DNA of 64,000 nucleotides from Dehalococcoidia bacterium UBA5748 (GCA_002419135.1 DIFM01000041.1:35130-99129), one strand, 5' to 3'. Shown: positions 26,001 through 42,367, counted from the stretch's first letter. Numbers and translations are program-made. The notes: generated by a model from the sequence alone, not told the origin.

Positions 26001-26341
26001 TAGCGGGTTGCTGCCAGGGGCCGAAGGATATCCCCGATACGGTGGCTCAGGCTTCGGCGGCTGCCGCCAGAGCGCTGGCTATGATAAGTAACAATAAAGT
26101 CGAAATCGATGGGGCTACATCGGAGATCATTGAAGAATTATGTTCCGGATGTCGTATCTGTAATAACCTGTGTCCGTACAGTGCGATTACATTTAATGAA
26201 ACTAAAAAGGTATCCGAAATCAATCCTGTTCTCTGTAAGGGGTGCGGGGTTTGCGTATCTGCCTGTCCTAGCGACGCTATAACGGGCAATCACTTTACCA
26301 ATAAACAGATAATGGCAGAAATTGAGGGGGTGTTAGCATGA
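23030..26341 (+). CDS. hdrA: HdrA-like flavoprotein carrying an inserted GltD/NfnB-like NAD(P)H-binding module (1103 aa)
   Basis: HdrA hallmarks: N-terminal [11 protein letters not shown] site [36 protein letters not shown], and C-terminal [12 protein letters not shown] / [12 protein letters not shown]. Between them (about aa 290-700) is a GltD-like block: [10 protein letters not shown]...[31 protein letters not shown]...[31 protein letters not shown]. Confidence 0.85.
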
Positions 26342-26757
26342 GTTTTGAACCTAAGATACTAGGTATCCTCTGTAATTGGTGCTCTTATTCGGGTGCTGAT
26401 TTGGCAGGGACTTCACGAAAAAAGTATCCTGCAAATATCAGGATAGTGAGGGTGATGTGCAGTGGCAGGGTTGACCCTGTATTCATCCTGAAAGCCCTTC
26501 AATCGGGGGCTGACGGAGTATTAATTCTTGGATGTCATCCCGGGGATTGCCATTATACTTCAGGTAATTATAAGGCCTTGCGGCGCATGGAAATGTTAAA
26601 AAAATTGGCGGAGCAGATGGGGATCGAAGACGATCGCATTCGCCTTGATTGGGTAGCGGCATCCGAAGGTGATAGATTTGCAGAGATAATAAAAGATATG
26701 ACAGAAAAAATTAAACAGTTGGGGCCTTTCCCCAGGGATGGAGGAGATAATGGCTAA
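26338..26757 (+). CDS. mvhD: MvhD-like (methyl-viologen-reducing hydrogenase delta subunit) protein
   Basis: 139 aa with [21 protein letters not shown] and [10 protein letters not shown] motifs. ATGA overlap with hdrA. Confidence 0.85.
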
Positions 26758-27706
26758 ACCAAAGGTGGCGTTATATTGGGCTGCCAGTTGCGGGGGTTGC
26801 GATATCGGCCTTCTGGAAATTGGTGAAAACCTGCTCAAGTTGATTGAGGCGGTGGACATTGTATTTTGGCCGGTTGCCATTGACGTTAAATATAAGGACG
26901 TTGAAGCTATGGAGGATGGGAGTATTGATGTCTGCCTGTTCAATGGTGCGATCCGCAGCTCTGAACAGGAGCACATTGCAAAGCTTTTGAGGGCAAAATC
27001 AAAGGTTATGATAGCTTACGGAGCCTGTGCTTATCAGGGAGGTATTCCGGGTCTGGCCAATATGTATAACAGGGAAATGATAATGGAGAGAGCATATCTG
27101 GAGACACCTTCTACTGAGAACCCCGATAAAGTTCTACCCCAGACGAGCTATCAGGCTCCGGAAGGAGAGCTTACTTTACCATTGCTTTTTGATACGGTTA
27201 AAACACTGGCACAGACAGTAAAGGTTGAATATATAATTCCCGGTTGTCCACCCGAAGCGCAAACAACATGGATGGCTCTTGAAGCATTGATAACCGGTCA
27301 AATGCCTCCTGTGGGAACGGTTATTACCGGTAACGCTAAGGCTGTTTGTAACGAGTGCCCGCGTAAGCGTGATGTTAAGAAAGTAAAGAAATTTTATAGG
27401 ACCTATGAAATTGATCCGGACCCCGAGATATGTCTTTTAGAACAGGGACTTCCGTGTGCCGGAATTGCTACTAAGGGCGGCTGCGACGCCAGATGCCCCA
27501 AAGCAGGGATGCCCTGTACCGGTTGTTATGGCCCGGTGGATGGTGTAATTGACCAGGGGGCGCATTTTATGAATGCTATAGCTTCTGTTATCGATTCAAA
27601 TGACCCGAATGAAATCGGAAAAATCATTGCAGATATCAGAGATCCTGCCGGTACATTCTATCGCTACAGTTTACCTGATTCCATATTAAGGAGGGCCAGA
27701 GTTTAA
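26750..27706 (+). CDS. mvhG: [NiFe]-hydrogenase small subunit, MvhG-like (group 3c type)
   Basis: N-terminal [15 protein letters not shown] and C-terminal Cys clusters ([30 protein letters not shown]). The start is taken at the ATG preceded by GGAGGAG; the track start is at 26738. Confidence 0.8.
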
Positions 27707-29163
27707 TGAGAAAGATTAGTATAGACCCGATTACAAGGCTTGAAGGGCATGGAAAAATCGAGATATTCCTTAATGATGAGGGAACGGTAGAGAACAGCTA
27801 TTTTCAGGTACCTGAACTGCGTGGCTTTGAAAAGTTTTCGGAAGGAAGATTAGCTGAAGATATGCCTCAAATTACACAGAGGGTTTGCGGCGTATGCCCG
27901 GAGGCGCATCATCTGGCATCGACCAAAACGCTGGATGCACTTTTCCATGTAACCCCGACCAGCACTGCCAGGAAACTGCGAGAACTGTTATACAATGCAT
28001 TTTATGTAACCGACCATACTACACACTTTTATATCCTGGGAGGTCCTGATTTTGTTATGGGTCCGGATGCGCCGGTCGCAGAACGCAATATTATCGGCGT
28101 TATCGGTAAGGTGGGGCTGGAACTGGGTGGCGCGGTCATCAATACCAGAAAAAAATGCCATCACTTAATCCAGGAGTTGGGTGGTAAGGCGGTACATCCG
28201 GTTTTTGGGTTACCGGGAGGTGTCAGCAGGGGCATAAACGAAGAGGAACGAAAGGAATTTGAACAAATTGCCAGGGATTCTCTTGAGTTTGCCAAGCTTT
28301 CCTTGAAAGTATTCGATGATATAGTTTTGGCTAATAAAGAATATGTCGATATGATTGTCAGCGATGCCTATACTCATAGGACCTACTCTATGGGACTGGT
28401 GGATGAGAATAATAAAGTAAATTACTATGATGGAAAGATAAGAGTTGTTGATCCGGATGGAAAAGAATTTGCTAAATTCGAGCCTAAAGATTACCTTGAG
28501 CATATAGCCGAACATGTCGAACCTTGGAGCTATATTAAGTTCCCGTATCTGAAGAAGGTCGGATGGAAAGGTTTCGTGGACGGAAAAGACAGCGGTGTAT
28601 TCCGTGTTGCTCCGATGGCTCGTCTTAACGCTTCGGATGGTATGGCAACGCCGGTGGCACAGGAAGCATACGAAAAGATGTATGATACGCTTGGCGGGAA
28701 ACCGGTGCATCATACTCTTGCTATTCATTGGGCAAGACTTGTTGAAATGGTACAGGCTGCCGAAACAATGATTGCTCTGTGTACCGATCCTGAGATTACC
28801 GGCGATGATTTAAGAAATATTCCTACGGCTACTCCTGATGAGGGAGTTGGGATAATCGAAGCTCCCAGGGGCACTTTAATTCATCATTACCAAACAGATG
28901 AAAAGGGCATAATTAAGAAGGCTAATTTAATTGTAGCAACAGTTAATAATGGAGCAGCGGTTAATATGTCCATTAATAAAGCAGCCAGGGCTCTCATCCA
29001 ACCGGATAAAGAAATAACGGAAGGATTGCTCAACCGTATCGAGATGGCATGGAGACCGTATGACTTATGTCTGGCTTGTGCCAGCCATAATTTACCGGGG
29101 CATCCGGCAATGCCGATGTATGTTTATAATAAAAATAAACAAATAGTAAAAAGTTGGGAATAG
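27706..29163 (+). CDS. mvhA: [NiFe]-hydrogenase large subunit, MvhA-like (group 3c type)
   Basis: 485 aa with N-terminal RLEGHGKI and RVCGVCPEAH, and the C-terminal DLCLACASH motif followed by a 24-aa extension. Confidence 0.85.
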   Translation: MRKISIDPITRLEGHGKIEIFLNDEGTVENSYFQVPELRGFEKFSEGRLAEDMPQITQRVCGVCPEAHHLASTKTLDALFHVTPTSTARKLRELLYNAFYVTDHTTHFYILGGPDFVMGPDAPVAERNIIGVIGKVGLELGGAVINTRKKCHHLIQELGGKAVHPVFGLPGGVSRGINEEERKEFEQIARDSLEFAKLSLKVFDDIVLANKEYVDMIVSDAYTHRTYSMGLVDENNKVNYYDGKIRVVDPDGKEFAKFEPKDYLEHIAEHVEPWSYIKFPYLKKVGWKGFVDGKDSGVFRVAPMARLNASDGMATPVAQEAYEKMYDTLGGKPVHHTLAIHWARLVEMVQAAETMIALCTDPEITGDDLRNIPTATPDEGVGIIEAPRGTLIHHYQTDEKGIIKKANLIVATVNNGAAVNMSINKAARALIQPDKEITEGLLNRIEMAWRPYDLCLACASHNLPGHPAMPMYVYNKNKQIVKSWE

Positions 29164-29176
29164 ATTACATAACATT

Positions 29177-29638
29177 TTGAAAACGCTTATTTTAGGATTG
29201 GGTAATCCATATCTCTGCGATGACAGCGCCGGCTTGAAGGTAGTCAAGCAGCTAGAAAAGAGGTTATCCAATCCCGATGTTTCTTTAAATGAGACCAGCC
29301 TGGCAGGTATTAATCTACTTGATTACCTGGTAGGCTACGACAAGGCTATCATTATCGATGCTATCACATCACCGAATGGTAAACCGGGTAGTATTTATCG
29401 CTTGACTCCCGAGGAATTCGATACTACTTGTCATACTACTTCCAGCCATGACATCGGTGTCATTGCCGCCATTGAGCTTGGCAGGAGGTTGGAGTTATCG
29501 ATGCCGAAAACAATAGAGATTATCGGTATAGAGGCACTTGACGTCAGCACTCTTACAGAGGAATGTTCCCCTGAGGTGGAGGCTGCAATTCCAATGGCAG
29601 CGGATATGATAGTAGAGGAAGTAAATGTAACGCCTTGA
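29177..29638 (+). CDS. Hydrogenase maturation endopeptidase (HybD/FrhD family)
   Basis: 153 aa with ILGLGNPYLCDDSAG, IIIDAI and TSSHDIG, matching the metal-ligand pattern of the family. TTG start. Confidence 0.8.
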   Translation: MKTLILGLGNPYLCDDSAGLKVVKQLEKRLSNPDVSLNETSLAGINLLDYLVGYDKAIIIDAITSPNGKPGSIYRLTPEEFDTTCHTTSSHDIGVIAAIELGRRLELSMPKTIEIIGIEALDVSTLTEECSPEVEAAIPMAADMIVEEVNVTP

Positions 29639-29708
29639 GTTTTTTCTTTCATAATTAACTGTAAATATAATAGACATTATGGTGTCCGCATAGTATAATA
29701 AATATACA

Positions 29709-30785
29709 ATGTGTATTTTATCGCAAAGCAACACACTTCAGATTAATCAGAGCACAGGCCAATACCTCAGAATTGAGCAATCGAACCTGTTGTCTATGCC
29801 ATTGTCAGAACTTAATTCATTTATCAGAGAAATTGAAAACAGCGAGTTGTTTGTTAAATATTTTAGGGAAAACAAAATTGTCCGCTATCAGAGATTTGAT
29901 AATTCAGATACATATATAAGCCATTTAAAATTTGATGAATCGGCTCTTGTTGATAATCAGCCTCCTGAAATAGATTCATTGCTGGAAAACAATCAAAACA
30001 CGATTGAATACATTCGTAAAATCGGTCCGGATAATTTTAAGAAATTTTTCATGGTACCGGAGGAAGGTCAATCCGAAGATGAAATTGCATTTGCCTGTGG
30101 CATACCTATAGCGTATGTTAAGGATATCAATAATCTGGTAAATGATATGGCGGTACTGGATGAGTTCCATTCTACATCCTCTCTTAACATTAATGATGTC
30201 AATTATACTAAAGTCGCCGCTATTGATAGAGAAGGAGACGGATTCAGGGTAAGCTATTATTTAAACTCTCTGGCAAGAGGGCGGTATCTGATAAATTATG
30301 AAATGCTTGAAGAGCATATAGTCCGGAAGTGCGTCAATGACGATGAAATAAAAAAAATAAGAGCCCTTCTTAAAAAGCTGGAGATGATAAATGTCTGTAA
30401 ACAGACATTGCATATCATTTTAATTAATTTAATCCACAAACAATGGGCTTTTATTGATTCGGGGAATTTCAAGGATTTATTGCCGCTTAGTCAAAAAGAA
30501 TTGGCTTTTCAACTGGGAATCAATCCGGCTACCTTAAGCCGTGCCATTAAGTTGAGAACAATAGATATTCCTTGTGGGCGGGAGATAACTCTAAAAAGTC
30601 TGTTTCCGAATCCAAGAAAATTCCGGATGGCGGTCCTGAAAAAGGTTTTACAGTCAGAAAATAATCTTATATCAGATAGAGTAATACAATCTAAACTATC
30701 CGGAAAATATGGAGTAAACATCTCAAGGCGTACAGTTGCAAATATGAGGAGGGAATTGAAAATACCTGCCGGGGGAGCTAGATAA
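29709..30785 (+). CDS. rpoN: Short sigma-54 (RpoN)-like factor, 358 aa
   Basis: C-terminal RpoN box ISRRTVANMRRELKIPAGGAR. HTH and flanking region CKQTLHIILINLIHKQWAFIDSG...LLPLSQKELAFQLGINPATLSRAIK...LKSLF. Gln/Leu-rich N-terminus LQINQSTGQYLRIEQSNLLSMPLSELNSFIREIENSE. Confidence 0.75.
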   Translation: MCILSQSNTLQINQSTGQYLRIEQSNLLSMPLSELNSFIREIENSELFVKYFRENKIVRYQRFDNSDTYISHLKFDESALVDNQPPEIDSLLENNQNTIEYIRKIGPDNFKKFFMVPEEGQSEDEIAFACGIPIAYVKDINNLVNDMAVLDEFHSTSSLNINDVNYTKVAAIDREGDGFRVSYYLNSLARGRYLINYEMLEEHIVRKCVNDDEIKKIRALLKKLEMINVCKQTLHIILINLIHKQWAFIDSGNFKDLLPLSQKELAFQLGINPATLSRAIKLRTIDIPCGREITLKSLFPNPRKFRMAVLKKVLQSENNLISDRVIQSKLSGKYGVNISRRTVANMRRELKIPAGGAR

Positions 30786-32735
30786 ATGAGTATCATTTAT
30801 ACTGAAAAAGATAAATGTAAAAGTTGTTACGCGTGTATACGCAGTTGTCCTGTTAAAGCTATTAAAGTCGAAGATCGACTGGCACAGGTAATACGAGAGC
30901 GTTGTATAGTTTGCGGAAACTGTTTGGAAGTATGCGTTACCGGTGCAAAGAAAGTTGAGAGCGATACCAGCCTCGTGTGGCAATTACTTAGCAAAAGGGA
31001 TAATTATTTAGTTGCGGTAGTTTCCTCATCTTTCCCGGCTGCCATGCCCGAAGTAGAACCGGGTAGTTTTGTTTCTGCATTGAAAAAATTGGGCTTTAAT
31101 GAAGTTATGGAAGATTCCGTTGGCGCAGAGTTAATAGGCAAGGAATACAGACGTTTGTTAACTAATCAGACCGGTAAACCGGTCATATCATCAAACTGCC
31201 CGGCGGTAGTAAATTATATAGAAAAATATTATCCCAAGTTAATTGGCTATATGGCTCATATCGTATCGCCGACTATAGCAACCGGCAGGTTGATTAAAAA
31301 CCATTATAACAGGGCAGCAAAAGTTGTTTTTATCGGTCCTTGTGTTGCAAAAAAAGATGAGGCGCGTAAACCCGGTAACCGTGGCGTGATAGACGCCGTT
31401 TTGACATTTGCCGAGCTCAAAGAAATGTTTACGGCGAAAAAGATAATCCCCGAAAAAGAGCCCCCATCAAGTTTTAGCGGGCCGACTCCCGACTTAGGCA
31501 GACTGATGTCTATTTCCGGAGGGTTGGCAAAGATTGCCGGGCTGTCAGATGATATCCTGAAAAACGAGGTGATCGGTGCTAACGGAAGGGAAGCGGTATC
31601 AAAAATATTAAAAGAGTTTGCCCATGGCGAGATTAATGCAAAGCTGATAAATCTCTATTTTTGCCACGGATGTGTTGGCGGTCCGGTAATCGATAATGAT
31701 TTGAGTATCTACAGACGCGAGGAACTTGTTGCTCGCTACGCATTAAAAGAATCTCATCCGGAACGGACGAAAAGCGATCTTGAGAAGTATGCTGATATCC
31801 AATTAAGCCGGCAATTTGTAACTCAGAATGTAATACTTGCCTCACCGGGTGATGAGGAAATTGAGAAAGTACTGCAAAAGATGAATAGGAGTAATCCTGA
31901 GGAACAGTTTAATTGCGGTGCCTGTGGTTACAGCTCGTGTCGTGAACTGGCTATGGCTGTTTGTGAAGGATTAGCAGAAATTGAAATGTGCTGGCCATAT
32001 TTGCATAAACATATGCAGGAAACGCAGGATGGATTGATACAGGCAGAAAAGATGACTTCTCTCGGGCAGCTTGCTGCTTCGGTTGCGCACGAAATCAACA
32101 ATCCCTTGTCAGGTGTTCTTATATATACGCAGCTTATGTCCAAGAAGTTAAAGGATAAGAATTATAGCACAGACGTTGCCCTGGACTATTTATCAAAAAT
32201 GGAAACGGAACTCAATCGAAGTACCAAGCTGGTCAGAAGTTTGCTCGATTTTTCAAGACAAACGGTTCCTGAGTTTTGGGAAGTGGACGTCAATGAGATA
32301 GTCGAAAGAAGTTATGACCTTGGTATACATTCGGCGGAAATGCAAAATGTGGAAGTATTAAAGCACCTTTCGCCGAATTTGCCTAAAATAGTGGCTGATT
32401 TCGGACAGATTCAGCAGGTTTGTACCAACCTTATAATGAATGCCATACAGGCAATGCCCGGCGGGGGAGTTTTAACGATACGTACATTACCGCTGGATGA
32501 ACAGGTACTGATAGAGGTAAGCGATACCGGAGTAGGAATATCACAGGAGAATATGAAAAAGCTTTTTACTCCTTTTTTCACCACAAAAAAAGAACAAAAA
32601 GGGGTGGGGCTGGGATTGGCAATATCTTACGGCATTGTCCAGCGTCATCATGGAAGAATAGATATAAAAACCAAAGAAGGAGAAGGCACAACGTTCAAGG
32701 TCTACCTGCCTGTCGTACATGAAGAAGAAGATTAA
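30786..32735 (+). CDS. Soluble sensor histidine kinase with an [FeFe]-hydrogenase H-domain-like sensor
   Basis: 649 aa with no TM segments. Two 4Fe-4S motifs (CKSCYACIRSCP, CIVCGNCLEVC). H-cluster-like motifs SSNCP (C138), GPCVAKKDE (C186) and FCHGCVGGP (C293/C296). A CGACGYSSC...C...C module, the H-box SVAHEINNPLSG, and HATPase motifs NLIMNAIQAM, DTGVGI, GVGLGL. Confidence 0.8.
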   Translation: MSIIYTEKDKCKSCYACIRSCPVKAIKVEDRLAQVIRERCIVCGNCLEVCVTGAKKVESDTSLVWQLLSKRDNYLVAVVSSSFPAAMPEVEPGSFVSALKKLGFNEVMEDSVGAELIGKEYRRLLTNQTGKPVISSNCPAVVNYIEKYYPKLIGYMAHIVSPTIATGRLIKNHYNRAAKVVFIGPCVAKKDEARKPGNRGVIDAVLTFAELKEMFTAKKIIPEKEPPSSFSGPTPDLGRLMSISGGLAKIAGLSDDILKNEVIGANGREAVSKILKEFAHGEINAKLINLYFCHGCVGGPVIDNDLSIYRREELVARYALKESHPERTKSDLEKYADIQLSRQFVTQNVILASPGDEEIEKVLQKMNRSNPEEQFNCGACGYSSCRELAMAVCEGLAEIEMCWPYLHKHMQETQDGLIQAEKMTSLGQLAASVAHEINNPLSGVLIYTQLMSKKLKDKNYSTDVALDYLSKMETELNRSTKLVRSLLDFSRQTVPEFWEVDVNEIVERSYDLGIHSAEMQNVEVLKHLSPNLPKIVADFGQIQQVCTNLIMNAIQAMPGGGVLTIRTLPLDEQVLIEVSDTGVGISQENMKKLFTPFFTTKKEQKGVGLGLAISYGIVQRHHGRIDIKTKEGEGTTFKVYLPVVHEEED

Positions 32736-34068
32736 AATATTAATTGTAGATGATGAAGACGTAATCCGTGATTCGTTTTATGAATGGTTAACGGAGTTAG
32801 GTTATGATGTTCTGCTGGCTGAGAACGGTATTAGCGCTTTAAGTGTTATCAATGAGAAAAAACCTGATATTGCTTTTATTGATTTGGTTCTGCCCGGAAT
32901 GGACGGGATAGAGGTTTTGAGAAAAATCAGGGAAACAGGACAAGGTACCGGTTGCGTAATTATGACTGCGTACGGAGGTATATCCACTGCTATAACCTCA
33001 ATGAAGGAAGGTGCTTTCGATTATATTGAAAAGCCTTTTTGCCCCGGTAAAGTGGAACTTTTAATTGAAAAGATGATAGAACATCAAACAATAAAAAAAG
33101 AGAATTTGTTGTTGCACCAAAAGCTTGATGAACGCTTTAATTTTGAGAACATTATTTACAAAAGTACCAAAATGCAAAGAATAGTTGAACTGGTTAAGGC
33201 TGTCGCTAAAAGCAATGCTACGGTGCTTATAACCGGAGAAAGCGGCACCGGAAAAGAATTGATTGCCAGGGCAATACATAGCTACAGCAATCGTTGTAGT
33301 AAACCATTTATTGCTATAAGTTGTGCCGCTCTGCCGGAGAATATTCTGGAGAGTGAATTGTTCGGACATGAAAGAGGTTCGTTTACCGGCGCCCATGCCC
33401 GCAGGAAGGGTAAATTTGAAATTTCCGATGGCGGAACCCTTTTTATGGATGAAATCGGAGACATGAGCACCAATATACAGATTCACTTATTGAGAGTGTT
33501 AGAAGAAAAAGAGTTTACACGGGTAGGCGGTAACGAAGTCGTTAAAGTGGATGTGAGATTGATATCAGCCACCAACAAAGATATGAAGCAGGAAGTCTTG
33601 AATGGTAATTTCAGGGAAGACTTATACTATCGGTTGAATGTGGTTAATATTGAATTGCCTCCCTTGCGTGACAGAAAAGAGGACATCCCGTTGCTGGCGG
33701 AGCATTTTTTAACTAAGTTTGCCGAAGAGAATAAAAAAGACATCAAAGACTTAAGCCCGGATGCCATTAATGATTTATTGAAATATGATTGGCCCGGTAA
33801 TGTCAGAGAGCTTGAAAACGTGATAGAGCGGGCGGTAATTCTGTCAGAAGAAAGTTTGCTAAATACAAAAGACCTGTTTTTAGAAGAGAACGGTGTACTT
33901 GTAGGGGAAAAAACATTAACCAGTATAACGGAAATTGAGAAAAAGCATATTGTTAATGTTTTGGAAGAATGCGGTGGGAATTGTACTAAATCGGCTCGTA
34001 TTTTAGGAATATCACGTATGACGCTGTATAATAAAATCCGGTCATATGGCATTGAAGTAAAAAAATAA
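32719..34068 (+). CDS. Sigma-54-dependent NtrC-family response regulator (enhancer-binding protein)
   Basis: 449 aa. REC (ILIVDDED, IAFIDLVLPGMDG, EKPF), AAA+ (GESGTGKE, GSFTGA loop, LFMDEIG, RVGG) and a C-terminal HTH (KSARILGISRMTLYNKI). Overlaps the kinase gene by 17 nt. Confidence 0.9.
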   Translation: MKKKIKILIVDDEDVIRDSFYEWLTELGYDVLLAENGISALSVINEKKPDIAFIDLVLPGMDGIEVLRKIRETGQGTGCVIMTAYGGISTAITSMKEGAFDYIEKPFCPGKVELLIEKMIEHQTIKKENLLLHQKLDERFNFENIIYKSTKMQRIVELVKAVAKSNATVLITGESGTGKELIARAIHSYSNRCSKPFIAISCAALPENILESELFGHERGSFTGAHARRKGKFEISDGGTLFMDEIGDMSTNIQIHLLRVLEEKEFTRVGGNEVVKVDVRLISATNKDMKQEVLNGNFREDLYYRLNVVNIELPPLRDRKEDIPLLAEHFLTKFAEENKKDIKDLSPDAINDLLKYDWPGNVRELENVIERAVILSEESLLNTKDLFLEENGVLVGEKTLTSITEIEKKHIVNVLEECGGNCTKSARILGISRMTLYNKIRSYGIEVKK

Positions 34069-34089
34069 TTTTATTCAAAATATATTGGT

Positions 34090-34105
34090 TGGCATAATAA
34101 TTGCA
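34090..34105 (+). promoter_or_regulatory. Sigma-54 (-24/-12) promoter
   Basis: TGGCAT-AATAA-TTGCA, against the consensus TGGCAC-N5-TTGCW. It begins 22 nt (a 21-nt gap) after the activator stop and lies 46 nt upstream of the ATG at 34152, which is preceded by GGGAGGG. Confidence 0.7.
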
Positions 34106-34151
34106 CCAATATTTAAATAGGGAATAATATATATTATATTGGGAGGGCATT

Positions 34152-34562
34152 ATGAAATCATTCGATCTTATTTCTATTAACCCTAGGGATGTTCCTGAAC
34201 ATTTGAAAATAGGGCAGGAAAAATACGAGAATGGTAATTACGAGGAAGCTGTAAATGAATTCAGTTCCATATTGAATGTAGCGCCCAGCAATATCGATGC
34301 CAGGATATGGCTTAGGAAAGCGCAGGTTTCTCTGGATAAAGAAAAAGGGCTCCTTTCTGAAAAAGTAGCAAATCCCAAAATTAAGGAATTAAAAGAACGT
34401 CCCGGTGCGCAAAGATATTGCCTGTATTGTGTTAAAGGGGATGTTTCAAACAGGGTATGCAGTCGTCTTTTTCAGTGTAAGACTTGTGAATTCGGGCAGA
34501 ATATGCAGAATTTACAAAAAGCAAAACTGGCTGCCAAAAAAGAAGCGGTTGTAAAAGAATAA
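34152..34562 (+). CDS. Small protein with a TPR-like helical N-terminus and a C-terminal Cys-rich (zinc-ribbon-like) segment
   Basis: 136 aa. GQEKYENGNYEEAVNEFSSILNVAPSNIDARIWL looks like a single TPR. The C-terminus carries CLYC-x9-C-x6-CKTC. It is the first ORF after the sigma-54 promoter. Confidence 0.55.
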   Translation: MKSFDLISINPRDVPEHLKIGQEKYENGNYEEAVNEFSSILNVAPSNIDARIWLRKAQVSLDKEKGLLSEKVANPKIKELKERPGAQRYCLYCVKGDVSNRVCSRLFQCKTCEFGQNMQNLQKAKLAAKKEAVVKE

Positions 34563-34611
34563 TTTTTAGTATAAATACCGGATAAACAATTTATGTAAAT
34601 AAATATTAGGG

Positions 34612-36954
34612 ATGTGTAATATGAATGAGAGTTCTGTGCTTGTTATCGAAAGTGATCCCATTGTTAGGGAATCTCTCAGTGGTTGGTTGAGCAGCACCGG
34701 ATTTGAGGTTACTTCTGCAGAAGACGGGGAGAAAATTGTAAAAGTTTTCGCCAAAAGTGATTTTAATATTGTTATAATGGATGTCCGTTTGCACAGTGAA
34801 ACACAGCTGGCGACACTCCGGGAAATGAAGGCAATTCGTCCATGGATAAAAACAATTATAATCGCAGCTCATCCACAGGAAGAAACAGTGCTGGAAGCCA
34901 AAAAAATCGGAGTAGTAGACTATATTGTAAAACCTGTGGATATGGATGACCTGCAAAGAATTATACAGGGGTCAGTAGAATCTATTTACAAAGATAATGT
35001 TAATATTACCGATGATAACACTTCCTTCGAAAGTTCCGGTGATGAGCTGGTGCCGGGAATAAAAAAATCATTTGCCATATCGAGAGAATACCTGTCTTTA
35101 ATGGTAGAAAATCTACTTAGAGAAACCGAAGTTATCGGGGTGAAGGCGAAGCAGGGAAAGTATATCTACGACAGGATTCATGGTTTTTATGAACTTAGTC
35201 TGGATTATGATGTTACGGTGTCGCCACCCACCAGATATATGTTTCCAGCCAAAGAGACACTCTTAAAATTTAAAACGGGAAACGGCAACCATGTGGAGCC
35301 GGTAATTGAATCCACGCCGAGGGTGATTATCGGTGTTCATCCATACGATATCAAGGCTATTGAATTACTGGATGACGTTTTTATGAACCATAATCCCGAC
35401 CCGAACTACATCGCAAGGCGGGAAAATACAATAATTATCGGAGTGGACTGTCTACACCCGTCGCCCCGCAGTTTTGCGCCCAGTATGGGGACCAATTGGA
35501 CTGAAACAGGCTTTGACCTGCTGTTAACCGATATCGGAAACAGTTATATTGTAAAAATAGGGACCGAAAAAGGGGCGGAACTGCTGGCAAAACATACCAA
35601 ATACCGTTTACCTACCGGAGATGAAATTGTCAGGCAGAAAAAGGTAAGGGGAGAGGCTTTAAACAGATATAAAGTTGCGCTGGATACACCAAAGGACAGA
35701 ATCCCCAAAATACTTGAGGAAAGTTATGATGACCCTTATTGGGAGAACAGGAGCGCAACATGTTTAAGTTGCGGGTCATGTATTATGGTCTGTCCTACCT
35801 GTTACTGTTTTGATGTAAAGGATGAGATGGCGTTGAATTTAACGGAGGGCGAAAGATTCAGGCGCTGGGACGGATGTATGCTGGTTGATTTTGCAAAAGT
35901 TGCTTCGGGGGAAAACTTCCGGAAGGATAAAGCCAGCCGTTTTCGCCATAGAATGTTTCGCAAAGGAAAATATATACTGGAAAGATATGGGAAAGTCGGA
36001 TGTGTAGGTTGCGGCCGCTGCTCAAGTGCTTGTTTGGCGGGTATTGCCAGTCCGCTTGAGGCATTTAACTCGCTGGCAGAAAATATTCGCTTAAAGGAAG
36101 CTGCAACCAGCGTTATTCAACCTGCAAAGCAGGCAATGGATATTTATACTCCGGAAATGGCAGAAATTCTTTCGGTGAGGCAATTAACGGAGAAAGAAAA
36201 AGTTTTTGAATTAAAACTAAAAAGCGGTAAAAAACTGGGACATTACCCCGGACAGTTCGTTACAGTTTCAATAATGGGTACCGGCGAAGCGCCGTTGTCC
36301 ATTTCGTCTTCACCTTTAAGAGGAAAAAACTTTCAACTGGCCGTGCGTAGTATGGGCGATTTAACATCAGCGCTGCATTCGGTAGAAGCAGGCGCTACGG
36401 TAGGTATCAGAGGACCGTTTGGCAATGGTTTCCCTCTGGAAACACTGGAGGGGAGGGACCTGTTGCTTATCGCCGGTGGAATCGGGCTTTTCCCATTGAG
36501 ATCGCTGATACAATATGTGATGGATAGGCGATATGATTACGGTAAGGTAAGCCTTCTTTACGGTTGTCGTACACCTGCCGAACGTGTTTTTACCGATGAA
36601 CTGGATTTTTGGCAAAACAGCAAGGATATAGATTTCCATGAAACGGTTGATCTGCAAAGCGAAGGGTGGACGGGTAACGTGGGGGTAATTACCAATTTAA
36701 TCGATAAAGTGGAGATTGACCCTAAGAAGACTATGGTGGCGGTGGTAGGACCGCCGATAATGTATAAATTTGTTATCGAAAAATTAAAAAAGAGGGATTT
36801 GCCTGATGCTCATGTTTTTCTCTCTTTGGAACGTAAGATGAAATGCGGAGTAGGTAAATGCGGGCATTGCCAGATTAACGGTATATATACCTGTCAGGAA
36901 GGGCCGGTGTTTTCACTTACGCAGTTAAGAAGTTTGAGAGAGGCGGTGCTGTGA
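34612..36954 (+). CDS. Receiver domain fused to hydrogenase beta-like (4Fe-4S) and gamma-like (FAD/NAD(P)/2Fe-2S) subunits of a group-3b-type [NiFe]-hydrogenase
   Basis: 780 aa. REC at about aa 8-120 (VLVIESD, D57 in NIVIMDVRL, K107 in YIVKPV). Beta-like part with CLSCGSCIMVCPTCYC and CVGCGRCSSAC. Gamma-like part with PLSISS, LLLIAGGIGLFPL and C-terminal CGVGKCGHCQ. The start could be the ATG at 34621. Confidence 0.8.
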   Translation: MCNMNESSVLVIESDPIVRESLSGWLSSTGFEVTSAEDGEKIVKVFAKSDFNIVIMDVRLHSETQLATLREMKAIRPWIKTIIIAAHPQEETVLEAKKIGVVDYIVKPVDMDDLQRIIQGSVESIYKDNVNITDDNTSFESSGDELVPGIKKSFAISREYLSLMVENLLRETEVIGVKAKQGKYIYDRIHGFYELSLDYDVTVSPPTRYMFPAKETLLKFKTGNGNHVEPVIESTPRVIIGVHPYDIKAIELLDDVFMNHNPDPNYIARRENTIIIGVDCLHPSPRSFAPSMGTNWTETGFDLLLTDIGNSYIVKIGTEKGAELLAKHTKYRLPTGDEIVRQKKVRGEALNRYKVALDTPKDRIPKILEESYDDPYWENRSATCLSCGSCIMVCPTCYCFDVKDEMALNLTEGERFRRWDGCMLVDFAKVASGENFRKDKASRFRHRMFRKGKYILERYGKVGCVGCGRCSSACLAGIASPLEAFNSLAENIRLKEAATSVIQPAKQAMDIYTPEMAEILSVRQLTEKEKVFELKLKSGKKLGHYPGQFVTVSIMGTGEAPLSISSSPLRGKNFQLAVRSMGDLTSALHSVEAGATVGIRGPFGNGFPLETLEGRDLLLIAGGIGLFPLRSLIQYVMDRRYDYGKVSLLYGCRTPAERVFTDELDFWQNSKDIDFHETVDLQSEGWTGNVGVITNLIDKVEIDPKKTMVAVVGPPIMYKFVIEKLKKRDLPDAHVFLSLERKMKCGVGKCGHCQINGIYTCQEGPVFSLTQLRSLREAVL

Positions 36955-37694
36955 TGAAACCGAAAGTGGCTTTTTTTGATTTTACCGGATGCGAAGGCTG
37001 TCAGCTGGATGCGCTGAATTTGGATGCCGAAGATTTAATTGATCTGCTGAACGGGGTGGATATCGTCGATTTTAGGGAGGTAATGACGGAAAGGTCTGAT
37101 AATTACGATATAGCTTTTGTCGAGGGTAGTATAACTACCGAGGGTGAAATAGAACGTATCAAAAAGATCAGAGAACAGGCTAAAATAGTGGTTGCTCTGG
37201 GTGCTTGTGCCTGTATCGGCGGAGTAAATTGCCTTAAAAATCATGTGCCGATGGAAGAAGCTCTCAGAATTGTATATGGTAAAGATGCCAAATACTATAA
37301 TACAATACCCGCCAGACCTGCCGATGCTGTGATAAAGGTAGACCACTATGTTCGCGGTTGTCCGCCGTCTACTGCCGAATTAGTCAAAGTAATAAAGGCT
37401 TTATTAATGAACAAAAAGCCGGACATTCCCAGCTATCCGGTTTGTGTGGAATGCAAAATGGCAGGTAATATTTGTGTTTATGAAAAAGGGCAGACCTGTC
37501 TGGGGCCTGTTACAAGAGCCGGTTGCAATGCGATATGCATAACCAGCGGCAGGTATTGTTGGGGCTGTCGTGGTTTGGTCGATGAACCCAATATCCAATC
37601 TCAGAAAGACATTCTAAACAAATATGGGCTTACCGCAGAACAGGTGATAGAGAAGTTTAAAATATATGATACGTGCAGTGAGGTGCTAAAATGA
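36951..37694 (+). CDS. [NiFe]-hydrogenase small (delta-like) subunit, group 3b type
   Basis: 247 aa with N-terminal VAFFDFTGCEGCQLD, GACACIGG and C-terminal Cys clusters (CVECK, CLGPVTRAGCNAIC, CWGCRG). Start and stop overlap the neighbouring genes on both sides. Confidence 0.8.
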   Translation: MMKPKVAFFDFTGCEGCQLDALNLDAEDLIDLLNGVDIVDFREVMTERSDNYDIAFVEGSITTEGEIERIKKIREQAKIVVALGACACIGGVNCLKNHVPMEEALRIVYGKDAKYYNTIPARPADAVIKVDHYVRGCPPSTAELVKVIKALLMNKKPDIPSYPVCVECKMAGNICVYEKGQTCLGPVTRAGCNAICITSGRYCWGCRGLVDEPNIQSQKDILNKYGLTAEQVIEKFKIYDTCSEVLK

Positions 37695-38977
37695 CACAGG
37701 TTAACATAAATGTTCATCATTTAACCCGTGTCGAAGGACATGGCAATATTGTTCTCAATGTAAATGAAGGGAAAATTGAAGAGCTAAAATGGATTGTTTC
37801 GGAATCCCCCCGTTTCTTTGAAGTGATGATGCGTGACAGATACTATGAAGACGTCAATCATATAGCATCCAGAATATGCGGCATCTGTTCTATATCACAT
37901 TCCACAGTCTCTTTACAGGCTACCGAAAAGGCGTTTGGAATCAAACCTTCCGAGCAAACAATCCTGTTAAGAAAACTATTATTCAATGCGGAAGTAATGG
38001 AAAGCCATATATTGCATATTATGTTTTTAGCGGCTCCGGATTTTCTGGGTGTAGGCAGTGTTTTCCCGCTGATAAATACCCATAAAGATATTGTTGTTAT
38101 GTCTTTAAGACTGAAAAGGTTGTCTTATAATTTAGCTGAAGCGCTGGCGGGGAGAAAAACGCATCCTCTTTCATGTATTGTCGGTGGTTTTGCCAAACTG
38201 CCTCAATACAGTGAACTTGAAGACCTGCGTAAAAGACTTGAAGATGCTCTGATTGACCTTGCGACTATTGTTGACTTGTTCAAAACATTGAAAATACCGG
38301 AGTTTCAGCGTGAAACCGAATACATCGCTCTCAAAGATGAAAGCGAGTATGCTTTTATCAGCGGGCAAATTGCCTCTTCCGATACAGGGCTGACACCGGT
38401 AGAAAATTATCTCAAAGTCACAAATGAATTTTGTGTTCCCCAGTCTACGGCTAAATATACTAAAAATGCCAGAGATTCCTATATGGTAGGCGCCCTGGCT
38501 CGGTTTAACATAAATCATGAACAACTCCTTCCGAAAGCCAAAAACGCTGCCAATGAACTTGGGCTGGTAGCTCCTAATATAAACCCGTTCATGATAACTG
38601 TCGCCCAGCTGGTTGAGGTTATACACGTTGTGGAACATAGTATTCAAATAATCGACCGCCTGTTTGCTGCCGGAATAAAAGAAGAACCTCATCGGGTTAA
38701 TCCCAGGAGGGGACGAGGCATTGCTTCAGTGGAAGCGCCGCGTGGTATTCTCTTCCATGACTATACTTACGGAGAAGGTGGTGTTTTAAAAGAAGCCAAC
38801 TGCGTAATACCGACCAATCAGAATCACAATAATATTCAAAAAGATTTTGAATCGCTTGTTCCCATAATCCTGTTGCAACCCGAAAACCAAATACGGCATA
38901 CCATGGAAATGCTGGTAAGGGCATACGACCCGTGTATTTCGTGTTCAGCCCATATGTTAAAAGTCGATTTCAAATAA
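37691..38977 (+). CDS. [NiFe]-hydrogenase large (alpha-like) subunit, group 3b type
   Basis: 428 aa with RVEGHGNI, RICGICSISH and C-terminal DPCISCSAH followed by only 7 residues. The beta-gamma-delta-alpha order mirrors Pyrococcus furiosus hydBGDA. Confidence 0.8.
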   Translation: MTQVNINVHHLTRVEGHGNIVLNVNEGKIEELKWIVSESPRFFEVMMRDRYYEDVNHIASRICGICSISHSTVSLQATEKAFGIKPSEQTILLRKLLFNAEVMESHILHIMFLAAPDFLGVGSVFPLINTHKDIVVMSLRLKRLSYNLAEALAGRKTHPLSCIVGGFAKLPQYSELEDLRKRLEDALIDLATIVDLFKTLKIPEFQRETEYIALKDESEYAFISGQIASSDTGLTPVENYLKVTNEFCVPQSTAKYTKNARDSYMVGALARFNINHEQLLPKAKNAANELGLVAPNINPFMITVAQLVEVIHVVEHSIQIIDRLFAAGIKEEPHRVNPRRGRGIASVEAPRGILFHDYTYGEGGVLKEANCVIPTNQNHNNIQKDFESLVPIILLQPENQIRHTMEMLVRAYDPCISCSAHMLKVDFK

Positions 38978-39138
38978 GTAATCGGACACAGCGGATGCGG
39001 TCATCAATACAATTGTTAAATGATTGCATCCGCTTGCTACAGCATAAAACACCTGCCGGACATATTATCCAAAATTAATCTTTGCTAGTTTCGTCATTAT
39101 TGCTCTTTACTAAAAAAGAGGCGGTGGTGTAAATCTTC

Positions 39139-39167
39139 TTGACACAATTATACAGTCCATATAAAAT
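39139..39167 (+). promoter_or_regulatory. Candidate sigma-70-type promoter
   Basis: TTGACA (39139-39144), a 17-nt spacer, then TAAAAT (39162-39167). A GAGGTG lies 7 nt before the ATG at 39188. Confidence 0.5.
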
Positions 39168-39187
39168 GGATGATGAGGTGTGTCACG

Positions 39188-39601
39188 ATGCAATGTCCCA
39201 TATGTAAAAAAGACATGATAGATGTCGAGTATGATAAAATCGAATTAGATTATTGTGTTAAATGTAAGGGAGTGTGGTTCGACTCCGACGAATTCGAACT
39301 GCTGTTTGAGAAAATGAATCTTGGGGATTCCTTTCCATTATTCTCGGAATTAACAAATAGGATTGATGACAAAGTTTCGGAGAATAAACATAAATGCCCT
39401 ATATGTAAAAAGGCAATGGGCAAGATAAGAATCGGGGATAATTCCAAGACTATTATCGATATATGTGTTAACGGTGACGGGTTGTGGTTTGACGGAGGAG
39501 AGGTTGTTCTACTAATCAAGCATGCTTCAAAAGATATTCAGCAGGAATCAAGCGCTGAACAACAGGCAATAAACTTTCTTGGAGAGGTCTTTCGTATATA
39601 G
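39188..39601 (+). CDS. Tandem TFIIB-type zinc-ribbon protein
   Basis: Two repeats of CPICKK-x-M...D-x-C-x-x-C/G-x-G-x-WFD. The start is chosen from the promoter and RBS geometry; the track start at 39170 would be essentially leaderless. Confidence 0.65.
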   Translation: MQCPICKKDMIDVEYDKIELDYCVKCKGVWFDSDEFELLFEKMNLGDSFPLFSELTNRIDDKVSENKHKCPICKKAMGKIRIGDNSKTIIDICVNGDGLWFDGGEVVLLIKHASKDIQQESSAEQQAINFLGEVFRI

Positions 39602-39652
39602 GGAAGTTTTCTAGTATTCCGCAGAAGCGGGAACTACATTAGGAGGTGTTTC

Positions 39653-40219
39653 TTGGAAATTGTACTTTGGGTTTTACTGGGAATCGTAGTTTTATTGTTG
39701 CTATTTTATGTTTTTACCTACAACGGTTTGGTCCGCTTACGCAATCAGGTTAAGAATGCCTGGGCTCAGATTGACGTTCAGTTAAAGAGAAGATATGACC
39801 TTATCCCCAACCTCATGGAAACGGTTAAAGGTTATATGAAGCATGAAAGAGAAACTCTGGAAGCGGTAACTAATGCCAGGAACCTGGCTCAAAAAATATC
39901 CGATAGCGGTGCCGCAGCCCGTTCGAAGGCTGAGGGGGAACTTAGCTCGGCATTAAGCAGGTTGCTGGCTGTTGCGGAAAATTATCCGGATTTAAAAGCC
40001 AATCAGAATTTCCTTGCTTTGCAGGAAGAATTGGCATCAACTGAAAATAAAATCAGTTTTTCGCGCCAATTCTATAACGATTCGGTTTTAAATTATAACA
40101 ACAAAATACAGATGTTCCCTTCGAATATTGTTGCCGGAATGAGTGGTTTTAAGATCGGTGAGTTCTTTGAAGTTACAACAATAAATGAGAGAGAGGCTCC
40201 CAAGGTCAGTTTTAGTTAA
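39653..40219 (+). CDS. lemA: LemA-family membrane protein
   Basis: 188 aa with an N-terminal TM helix followed by [32 protein letters not shown]...ENYPDLKAN...[19 protein letters not shown], typical of LemA. Confidence 0.85.
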
Positions 40220-41530: not shown

Positions 41531-42025
41531 TCAAATATCTTGTGTAAAATTGGGTAAGGGCTTATCCTCCCAGTTATTATTCAGATGATTCATTACTCCA
41601 AAGATTATTCGGTCCACACTTTTATAATTGGTAAAACAGCTCATTGTTTTGGTTCTTCTTCTGACTTCCCTGAAAGATCTCTCTATAACATTGGTGGTTC
41701 TTATCTTAATACGATGTGATACCGGACAATCCAAGAAATTCAGCATCTCATCCAGGTCATTTTCCAAGCACCTGATTGCCCTGGGGTAATGTATACACCA
41801 TTCGGATTTCCAGTCATTAAAAGCTTTAACTGCCTCCCTCCTGTTGTCTGCCAAATATATCAATTTCGTCCCTGCCATGCACTTTTTCTGGTCTTTACGC
41901 TTCAGGTAGTTGGAAATGTTCCTCAGTTTGTGCGCCCAACACCTTTGGATAGGAATATAAGGATATATTATTTCAATAGCACTGTGCAGCCCCTTGCAGC
42001 CATCGATACAGATGAGCTTGCAGTT
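41531..42025 (-). mobile_element. IS256-family transposase remnant (C-terminal ~165 aa only)
   Basis: The minus-strand frame is open beyond the track ORF and reads ..LICIDGCKGLHSAIEIIYPYIPIQRCWAHKLRNISNYLKRKDQKKCMAGTKLIY...TNVIERSFREVRRRTKTMSCF.. This is the DDE-region and C-terminal signature of mutator/IS256 transposases. The N-terminal half is absent. Confidence 0.75.
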
Positions 42026-42043
42026 GTTCCCCGCCGATCCTCT

Positions 42044-42367
42044 TTGTCTCTCATGTCGGATAATGGCTGCCAGCCAACATCGATAAGCTTCATGAAATCG
42101 TGCCGTGACATGGGAATTAAGCAGGCTTTTACCAGCTACAATAACCCCAAGGGGAATGCCGATACCGAGAGGTTTTTCCGGACAATGAAAGAAGAGCTAT
42201 TATGGCTACGAGATTGGGTAAATCCTATGGAGCTTATGGATGAAATCGGAGAATAGATTCCGAATTACAATGCCAACTATCTGCATTCGTCACTGGGATA
42301 TAAGACACCAAACCAGGCGGAAACAGAATATTATAATGGACAGCTACTACACAATTTGAGGGCTTGA
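42044..42367 (+). mobile_element. rve (IS3/IS481-type) transposase remnant, 5'-truncated with an in-frame TAG
   Basis: ..MSDNGCQPTSISFMKSCRDMGIKQAFTSYNNPKGNADTERFFRTMKEELLW.. continues in the same frame after the TAG at 42254-42256 as IPNYNANYLHSSLGYKTPNQAE..*. This is a typical integrase-core C-terminus. Confidence 0.7.

Follow-up and report, generated by a model that had tools for sequence, protein, structure and literature searches.

In Cupriavidus necator (Ralstonia eutropha), the HoxBC-HoxJ-HoxA system relays the signal of an H2 sensor via a kinase to a regulator of the NtrC family that acts on sigma-54 hydrogenase promoters. The sensor of this bacterium, a regulatory [NiFe] hydrogenase, is a separate protein, and the general RpoN serves as sigma factor. 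This system is the closest functional parallel to a locus that we analyzed in silico in a stretch of 64,000 nucleotides (nt) from the Dehalococcoidia bacterium UBA5748 (GCA_002419135.1 DIFM01000041.1:35130-99129); we refer to this whole stretch as the window and count positions from its first letter. A -24/-12 element at positions 34090-34105 follows the gene for an NtrC-type activator and precedes genes for a [NiFe] hydrogenase-like enzyme, and we consider it very probable that this element is a real, conserved promoter that functions in a sigma-54-dependent manner. Like the Hox system, the locus, as known from its sequence, combines a hydrogenase-like sensor, a kinase, an NtrC-type activator, and a sigma-54 hydrogenase promoter. 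It differs from the Hox system in that the sensor is [FeFe]-like and fused to the kinase, in that a compact sigma-54 homologue is encoded in the same operon, and in that it belongs to a lineage of Dehalococcoidales (Chloroflexota) represented by metagenome-assembled genomes (MAGs).

A second point of reference is the Escherichia coli promoter glnAp2 with its NtrB/NtrC two-component system. Phosphorylated NtrC occupies 17-base-pair (bp) dyads with a 6-N5-6 layout, which are found at about -110 and -140 and also overlap the sigma-70 promoter glnAp1. The window resembles this arrangement in its -24/-12 promoter and in candidate TGTCAA-N5-TTGACA elements that overlap the -35 boxes of promoters at 29660 and 39128, where they presumably repress. 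It differs in the sequence of these sites and in possessing no such site within about 800 nt of the promoter. Sigma-54 and its activators are present in only some Chloroflexi (Francke et al., 2011; PMC3162934), and our literature search brought up nothing specific on sigma-54 in Dehalococcoidia.

The -24/-12 element and its conservation among related loci

When compared with the longer consensus TGGCAC-N5-TTGCW, the element TGGCATAATAATTGCA has both TGGCA and TTGCA intact, a GG to GC distance of 10 nt, and TA instead of CG as the weakly conserved pair after TGGCA. It begins 21 nt 3' of the activator stop codon (TAA, 34066-34068) in a non-coding gap of 83 nt (34069-34151), is oriented in the same direction as the downstream gene, and ends 46 nt 5' of its ATG at 34152. 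From the usual geometry of sigma-54 promoters, transcription is predicted to start at about A34116, 12 nt past the C of the GC dinucleotide, and the leader of the transcript would then be about 36 nt long. The coordinates, the spacing, the dimensions of the gap, the stop and start codons, and the ribosome-binding site reported in an initial annotation, which had proposed a sigma-54 promoter from the sequence alone, all agree with our reading.

We found two exact matches to TGGCA-N6-TTGCW in the window, and shuffled sequences gave an expectation of 0.44, a value within the range of 0.1-0.5 that the initial annotation had estimated. The match by itself is thus not significant. The initial annotation had argued that the position rather than the match is convincing, and the position, together with the conservation described below, is indeed decisive. 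The second exact match (34287-34302) is located on the minus strand inside the open reading frame for a 136-amino-acid protein, and the close relatives L002 and L082/L083 (L numbers denote related loci) have no counterpart of it in the strict pattern on that strand. Since it lies in a coding region and lacks such counterparts, we treated it as a chance occurrence.

To assess conservation, we gathered related loci through a search with the activator, by aligning the sigma-like protein to contigs from metagenomes, and through exact look-ups of family members. These loci are mostly metagenomic, and the closest named genomes are Dehalococcoidales MAGs whose activators are 65-76% identical to that of the window; the identical activator protein is encoded on a 143-kilobase (kb) metagenome contig of the Joint Genome Institute. 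A first set comprised 36 loci whose sequences cover the 3' end of the orthologous activator gene as well as downstream DNA. The pattern TGG[CT]A-N6-T[TC]GC occurred on the same strand, no more than 400 nt past the activator gene, in 34 of them, and in 35 if a one-mismatch variant (TGGCCAAGAAATTGCA) in the exception L156 is included; the other exception, L108, is rearranged. After further loci had been added, the strict pattern TGGCA-N6-TTGC matched 41 times on the same strand in the 450 nt following the activator gene of 43 loci. Elsewhere it matched 16 times in 1.63 million strand-bases (0.0098 per kb), which corresponds to about 0.2 matches expected in the 43 x 450 nt tested, so that the density at the orthologous position exceeds the background roughly 200-fold. 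The consensus across the loci reads TTTTnTTT-TGGCAAGAAAATTGCAC-CTAaATAGGG, and some relatives carry additional copies of the whole cassette ahead of other genes (L004, 9656-9771; L084, 14478 and 14601). A functionless chance match might be suspected from the 0.44 matches expected per window and from the second, apparently meaningless match 180 nt away on the other strand. However, the conservation of the motif at the orthologous position in dozens of loci, at about 200-fold over background, effectively refutes this explanation, and its probability is negligible.

The clade to which the window belongs consists of the window itself, L082/83, L002, L162, L164/165, L166, and L167/168. The sigma-like proteins encoded in it are 58-64% identical to that of the window, with the exception of L082/83 (86%). 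In an alignment of seven sequences from this clade, the spacer of 18-30 nt between the activator stop codon and the motif cannot be aligned, whereas 13 of the 16 motif columns and about 25 nt following them are kept (Table 1). Since the motif was retained while the adjoining spacer diverged, selection seems to act on the element itself.

The block after the -12 element contains a sequence, AAATAGGG, that is common to the clade of the window and to a larger clade of relatives. The spacing GG-N10-GC is invariant across both clades, whereas the distance from the -12 element to AAATAGGG differs by 6 nt between them. This combination counts against a reading of the same DNA as a sigma-70 promoter, in which TTGGCA (34089-34094) would serve as the -35 box and TAAATA (34114-34119) as the -10 box. 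The window can be read as TTGGCA-19 nt-TAAATA, and a scan for sigma-70-type promoters gave weak matches (9/12) in the gap. However, the spacer of 19 nt is outside the usual range of 16-18 nt, the same two blocks are 13 nt apart in the larger clade while GG-N10-GC never varies, and weak matches of this kind are no more common than in shuffled sequence (33 versus 28.8). We therefore regard a sigma-70 promoter as highly improbable. The sigma-54 assignment made in the initial annotation is backed by the conservation among relatives, by an activator possessing the GSFTGA motif and an HTH_8 domain, and by the adjacent sigma-54 homologue. The promoter itself is of an ordinary, well-known type; what makes the locus most interesting is its complete sensory-hydrogenase chain, a large, unnamed family of compact sigma-54 proteins, and the persistence of the promoter without a nearby enhancer.

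Regulatory proteins and target genes

All genes between 21.6 and 41.4 kb of the window are encoded on the plus strand. The features considered here are compiled in Table 1.

Table 1. Features of the window in the surroundings of the -24/-12 element
Feature	Position	Strand	Remarks
HdrA/MvhD/MvhG/MvhA-type genes and HycI protease gene	23030-29638	+	5' of the sigma-54-like gene
TGT-N11-ACA element TGTAAATATAATAGACA and sigma-70-type promoter TAGACA-17-TATAAT	29660-29699	+	Element 29660-29676; promoter 29671-29699
Compact sigma-54 homologue, 358 amino acids	29709-30785	+	Pfam Sigma54_DBD, 2.7e-16
Sensor histidine kinase, 649 amino acids	30786-32735	+	N-terminal 400 residues [FeFe]-hydrogenase-like, fused to HisKA and HATPase
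NtrC/AtoC-type response regulator/sigma-54 activator, 449 amino acids	32719-34068	+	Receiver, AAA+ with GSFTGA, HTH_8
Core -24/-12 element TGGCATAATAATTGCA	34090-34105	+	Exact match to TGGCA-N6-TTGCW; GG 34091-34092, GC 34103-34104
Conserved stretch after the -12 element, CCAATATTTAAATAGGGAATAATAT	34106-34130	+	From the seven-sequence clade alignment; includes the predicted transcription start
Ribosome-binding site GGGAGGG	34141-34147	+	5' of ATG 34152; both kept in the clade alignment
136-amino-acid protein, first gene of the operon	34152-34562	+	Open reading frame; weak TPR similarity in the N-terminal part, Cys-rich C-terminus
Receiver domain fused to HydB/HydG-like (sulfhydrogenase beta-/gamma-like) subunits, 780 amino acids	34612-36954	+	
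[NiFe] hydrogenase small subunit	36951-37694	+	Pfam/NCBIfam
[NiFe] hydrogenase large subunit	37691-38977	+	Pfam/NCBIfam
TGT-N11-ACA element TGTAAATCTTCTTGACA over the sigma-70-type -35 box of Zn-ribbon/LemA/M48 genes	39128-39167	+	Element 39128-39144, 5.0 kb downstream

The regulatory genes start with that for the compact sigma-54 homologue, and the sigma-like gene is likewise followed by those for the kinase and the activator in practically every related locus with a sufficiently long contig. We consider the compact protein the most likely factor to be used at the 34090 promoter, and a tblastn search of the 64-kb window did not reveal a second sigma-54 or activator gene. At the sequence level, it matches sigma-54 over its C-terminal half only; a profile of its family aligned residues 158-358 to the Aquifex sigma-54 protein (5ui5) with a value of 9e-19. 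The family has conserved both the STLSR helix-turn-helix and the RpoN box (SRRTVAN.R), which contact the -12 and the -24 element in solved sigma-54 complexes. Its conserved N-terminus (Q..Q..LRIEQSNLL.MP..EL) resembles region I. The middle 150 residues resemble sigma-54 at the level of the fold only, as judged from an AlphaFold model with a predicted local distance difference test (pLDDT) score of 73. The 21 best Foldseek matches of this model in the PDB are all sigma-54 proteins, with full-length alignments, a probability of 1.0, and template modelling scores of about 0.38.

Several observations weigh against the assignment of this protein as a sigma-54 factor. Its score against the rpoN equivalog (69.5 bits) is far below the cut-off of 277 bits, as are its scores against rpoN family cut-offs in general; a Pfam scan of the protein did not detect a core-binding domain; and the medium-confidence model is the sole basis on which binding to core polymerase can be suggested. 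The same holds for its family as far as the rpoN family cut-offs are concerned, since all members score below them. An exhaustive profile search yielded 281 cluster representatives (at 50% identity) with E-values of 1e-30 or lower, nearly all of them 340-390 amino acids in length and aligned from end to end, and most are unnamed or annotated as 'hypothetical'. With this size, they are shorter than the Aquifex and E. coli proteins of about 400 to 480 amino acids or more, and the family prompts one to ask what the minimal size of a working sigma-54 is. A distant member in an Elusimicrobia MAG also adjoins a kinase/activator/receiver operon, and TGGC[CA]-N6-TTGC is found at four sites upstream of genes in that locus, three of them in gaps between genes and one ahead of the first called gene.

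The activator was recognized in Pfam through its Response_reg, Sigma54_activat (2.7e-73), and HTH_8 domains. Its translation contains, besides GSFTGA, intact Walker motifs (Walker A, GESGTGKE), and its recognition helix, GISRMTLYNKI, is the same in both clades. Its best matches in NCBIfam are AtoC (514.6 bits) and ZraR (439.6 bits), with which it shares the order of receiver, AAA+ and HTH_8 domains, and AtoS and ZraS are the best matches of the kinase core. None of these scores reaches the equivalog cut-offs (714 and 760 bits), and the proteins are therefore not orthologues of AtoS/AtoC or ZraS/ZraR; the sensor domain and the targets are unrelated to those of these systems as well.

In the sensor kinase, the hydrogenase-like module is composed of two [4Fe-4S] clusters, the H-domain, and a C-terminal FeS motif that precedes HisKA, and Pfam accordingly reported Fe_hyd_lg_C (2.1e-50), FeS, HisKA, and HATPase_c. 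Compared with solved [FeFe] hydrogenases, the kinase has SSNCP instead of TSCCP, with Asn taking the position of the proton-relay Cys, but preserves PCxxKKxE and CxGCxGG. The H-cluster cysteines, including the second Cys of TSCCP, are thus retained, as is typical of putative sensory [FeFe] hydrogenases, and the input of the kinase is likely to be H2 or the redox state. Putative sensory [FeFe] hydrogenases (groups C and D; e.g., HydS of Thermotoga maritima) likewise keep the ligating cysteines, have the proton-relay Cys replaced, and possess a C-terminal FeS motif next to the signalling domain. The examples studied so far carry a PAS domain, whereas the protein studied here is a direct fusion to HisKA/HATPase with a downstream chain that can be read from the sequence. 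In some related loci (e.g., L097, L099, and L105), the kinase encoded at this position matches the kinase core only, and L143 and L155 possess both kinds of kinases.

The likely targets of the promoter are the gene for the 136-amino-acid protein and the genes for a putative group-3b-like [NiFe] hydrogenase (34152-38977). The 136-amino-acid protein yielded only weak, sub-threshold TPR matches in Pfam and no match in NCBIfam, and its C-terminal cysteines are arranged as CLYC...C...CKTC. In the other clade, the promoter is followed by a longer homologue as the second gene, with a matched stretch of about 185 codons, and the protein is a conserved member of the regulon. The hydrogenase proteins matched sulfhydrogenase ShyB/HydB, HydG/ShyC, Oxidored_q6, and ShyA/HydA in Pfam and NCBIfam, all below the equivalog cut-offs. 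The overlaps among the last three coding regions make it probable that these are transcribed as a single unit together with the gene for the 136-amino-acid protein. The order of the hydrogenase genes is the same in L002, L082, L162, L164, L166, and L167. The receiver domain is fused to the N-terminus of the HydB/HydG-like subunit in the window, and the larger clade has separate genes for single-domain receivers after the promoter. Because of this fusion, the same kinase might also act on the enzyme post-translationally.

Candidate activator sites, terminators, and the mode of activation

In most relatives, a 17-bp TGT-N11-ACA element, typically TGTAAAGAAAATAGACA, overlaps the final codons of the activator gene at a distance of about 100 nt upstream from TGGCA; among the distinct relative contexts that we compared, only one did not have such an element near the promoter. 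Several properties point to a signal at the level of the DNA rather than of the protein. In 22 distinct contexts, the outer T is the third position of codons for 8 amino acids, and the outer A begins codons for 5. The element is retained in the non-coding copies of the cassette in L004 and L084, and it is tripled at intervals of 44-45 nt in L132, where -10 boxes are missing. In addition, many loci have more palindromic versions (TGTCAA-N5-TTGACA) about 40 nt ahead of the sigma-like gene. Sites of the NtrC type have the same 6-N5-6 layout. With moderate confidence, we regard the TGT-N11-ACA element as a candidate binding site of the activator.

In the larger clade, the spacer of about 77 nt contains a strong hairpin (AGGCTATCCTGA-N5-TCAGGATAGCCT), and the T-run of this hairpin continues into the -24 element. 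Compensatory changes in L123/L126 and L132 and the low fold scores of the relatives' hairpins (z = -3.4 to -4.5) mark it as an intrinsic terminator of the regulatory operon. The complete cassette of the larger clade spans about 130 nt and consists of TGT-N11-ACA, a TTTTACAAT block, a small hairpin (CTGCTTAAAGCAG), the terminator hairpin, the T-run, and the -24/-12 element (e.g., L148, 14389-14480; L004, 9650-9790; L084, 14470-14640; L132, 4480-4740). We had also considered TGT-N11-ACA together with TACAAT as a sigma-70 promoter of a short terminated RNA in the relatives; this candidate was downgraded, as the copies in L132 have no -10 box.

The situation in the window is different, and it furnishes arguments against an activator-driven -24/-12 promoter. 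A weight matrix built from the elements of the relatives gave no match of 4 bits or more in 33300-34900, and no recognizable enhancer is present within about 800 nt of the promoter, which is unusual for an activator with a DNA-binding domain. An exhaustive search for dyads (5-6 nt, spacers of 0-13 nt, -500 to +250) in five independent members of the clade revealed no conserved palindrome either; apart from an AT-rich run at the start site and a dyad within the conserved coding motif WPGNVREL, nothing recurred. Furthermore, the terminator hairpin of the relatives (GGCTATCCT-N9-AGGATAGCC) is absent from the window, so that read-through could supply expression without the promoter. Finally, the TGT-N11-ACA element could belong to another regulator or to the architecture of sigma-70 promoters, a doubt that arises because its copies at 29660 and 39128 overlap -35 boxes of the sigma-70 type.

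It appears that one or more deletions removed the proximal enhancer, the terminator, and the first receiver gene from the clade of the window, with the promoter remaining under selection. The initial annotation had pointed out as an oddity that the intergenic DNA leaves no room for activator sites, and the loss of the proximal element and the terminator in this clade bears this out. It had placed such sites either inside the 3' end of the activator gene or elsewhere: the former applies to most relatives, whereas for the clade of the window only the latter holds. Its statement that no clear palindrome lies upstream was essentially right as well. We rejected a perfect 11-nt inverted repeat (33910-33920/33952-33962) as an enhancer, since it is broken in L082 and absent in L002, L162, L166, and L167. 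The same applies to TGTAGGGGAAAAAACA (TGT-N10-ACA, at -190), which is shared only by the window and the 94%-identical L082/L083 and differs in L002, L162, L164, L166, and L167.

An exact 8-nt inverted repeat (34082-34089/34105-34112) brackets the motif in the window, and relatives carry a terminator at this position. The motif could thus be viewed as the loop of a hairpin or of a protein-binding palindrome (ATATTGGT...ACCAATAT, 34082-34112) that terminates the activator operon or is bound by a repressor. However, the RNA forms only a weak structure (-9.4 kcal/mol; z = -1.5, compared with -3.4 to -4.5 for the terminators of the relatives), 14 of 200 shuffled sequences folded equally well, a U-run is missing, and the arms are not conserved in L002, L162, L166, and L167. 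We give this explanation a very slim chance. Rfam scans of 29000-40000 and of the cassette of a relative did not detect any RNA family.

The missing TGT-N11-ACA element and terminator, the mere 18-30 nt between the stop codon and the motif in the clade, and the presence of a good sigma-70-type promoter ahead of the regulatory operon would all fit a relic, i.e., an inherited -24/-12 element that no longer fires, with the hydrogenase genes being expressed only by read-through from 29671-29699. We nevertheless consider a relic improbable. The genes for the activator, the kinase, and the sigma factor are all intact, and five independent lineages of the clade, with the 58-64% identity of their sigma-like proteins to that of the window, keep the motif and about 25 nt following it although the spacer has diverged. 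This argues for purifying selection on the -24/-12 promoter after the loss of the enhancer.

The two elements at 29660 and 39128 are the only strong copies of TGT-N11-ACA in the window, and both positions are conserved in the clade. The former, 4.4 kb upstream, is the candidate activator site nearest to the 34090 promoter. It was the best weight-matrix match in the window in both of our scans, with 21.7 bits in the first, whose matrix of promoter-proximal elements from relatives already held the identical 17-mer from L132, and with 22.5 bits in the second, whose training set included the 29660 site itself and other sites at -49 and at the Zn-ribbon gene. Elements of this type are found at -49 from the ATG in L002, L082, L164, L166, and L167. 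The element overlaps the -35 box of a promoter that scored 11/12 in the sigma-70 scan. Since only 9 nt lie between the end of this promoter and the ATG of the sigma-like gene, the mRNA may be leaderless or nearly so. At the place equivalent to 39128, L162 and L167 possess the palindromic TGTCAAGAACATTGACA, and L002 and L164 possess TGTCAAGAATATAGACA; the membership of the 39128 element in the system is uncertain. Both flanking sigma-70-type promoters have TGTAAAT 11 nt upstream of the end of the -35 box, by which TGT-N11-ACA dyads are formed.

These data are best explained by the following course of events at the -24/-12 promoter. Sigma-54 RNA polymerase, most likely with the compact sigma factor encoded 4.3 kb upstream in the same cluster, would bind the GG and GC dinucleotides as a closed complex. 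The [FeFe]-hydrogenase-like kinase would phosphorylate the adjacent NtrC-type regulator, presumably in response to H2 or the redox state, and the phosphorylated regulator would open the complex by ATP hydrolysis. Transcription would then proceed from near 34116 through the gene for the 136-amino-acid protein and those for the receiver-fused, group-3b-like [NiFe] hydrogenase (34152-38977). For most relatives, binding of the activator to TGT-N11-ACA about 100 nt upstream is probable, and a strong intrinsic terminator separates the regulatory operon from the promoter. In the window, activation may occur from the distant sites (29660 and/or 39128), from a site that we did not recognize, or without DNA binding, from solution. 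NtrC can act from kilobase distances, and DNA looping from 4.4 kb upstream or 5.0 kb downstream is one of these options. Since the terminator is absent, read-through from the promoter at 29671-29699 probably adds basal expression.

On a wider scale, we tentatively suggest, while regarding it as rather doubtful in its entirety, that a self-contained sigma-54 cassette acts through this promoter. In such a cassette, a compact sigma factor of about 360 amino acids (at least 281 clusters at 50% identity) would travel with its own kinase, its own activator, and one or a few -24/-12 promoters; an [FeFe]-derived H2 sensor would be wired to a [NiFe] hydrogenase; and the clade of the window, having no proximal enhancer, would rely on activation over 4-5 kb or without specific DNA binding. 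The putative signal chain from the [FeFe]-like sensor kinase via the NtrC-type activator and the compact sigma-54 to the -24/-12 promoter and the [NiFe] operon can be read from the sequence, and it belongs to an uncultured Dehalococcoidales lineage for which hydrogen metabolism is ecologically relevant. To the questions whether 'sensory' [FeFe] hydrogenases sense H2 and what they control, the locus can contribute a concrete output promoter, suited to reconstruction as a reporter in vitro or in another host. The enhancer-less clade, in turn, prompts one to ask how an activator can function if sites in its vicinity are lacking.

Two minor observations concern repetitive or mobile DNA. In L124 (11000-11230), L136, and L161, G+C-rich repeated hairpins (e.g., GAGGGGCTGACGCCCCTC and CCCTTCCCTTATTAAGGGAAGGG) are inserted between TGT-N11-ACA and the promoter, by which the element is shifted to between -200 and -265; these hairpins look like small mobile or repetitive intergenic elements. 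In the window, overlapping open reading frames on opposite strands at 41531-42256, just 3' of the LemA/M48 genes, resemble transposase fragments and include an integrase-like C-terminal motif.

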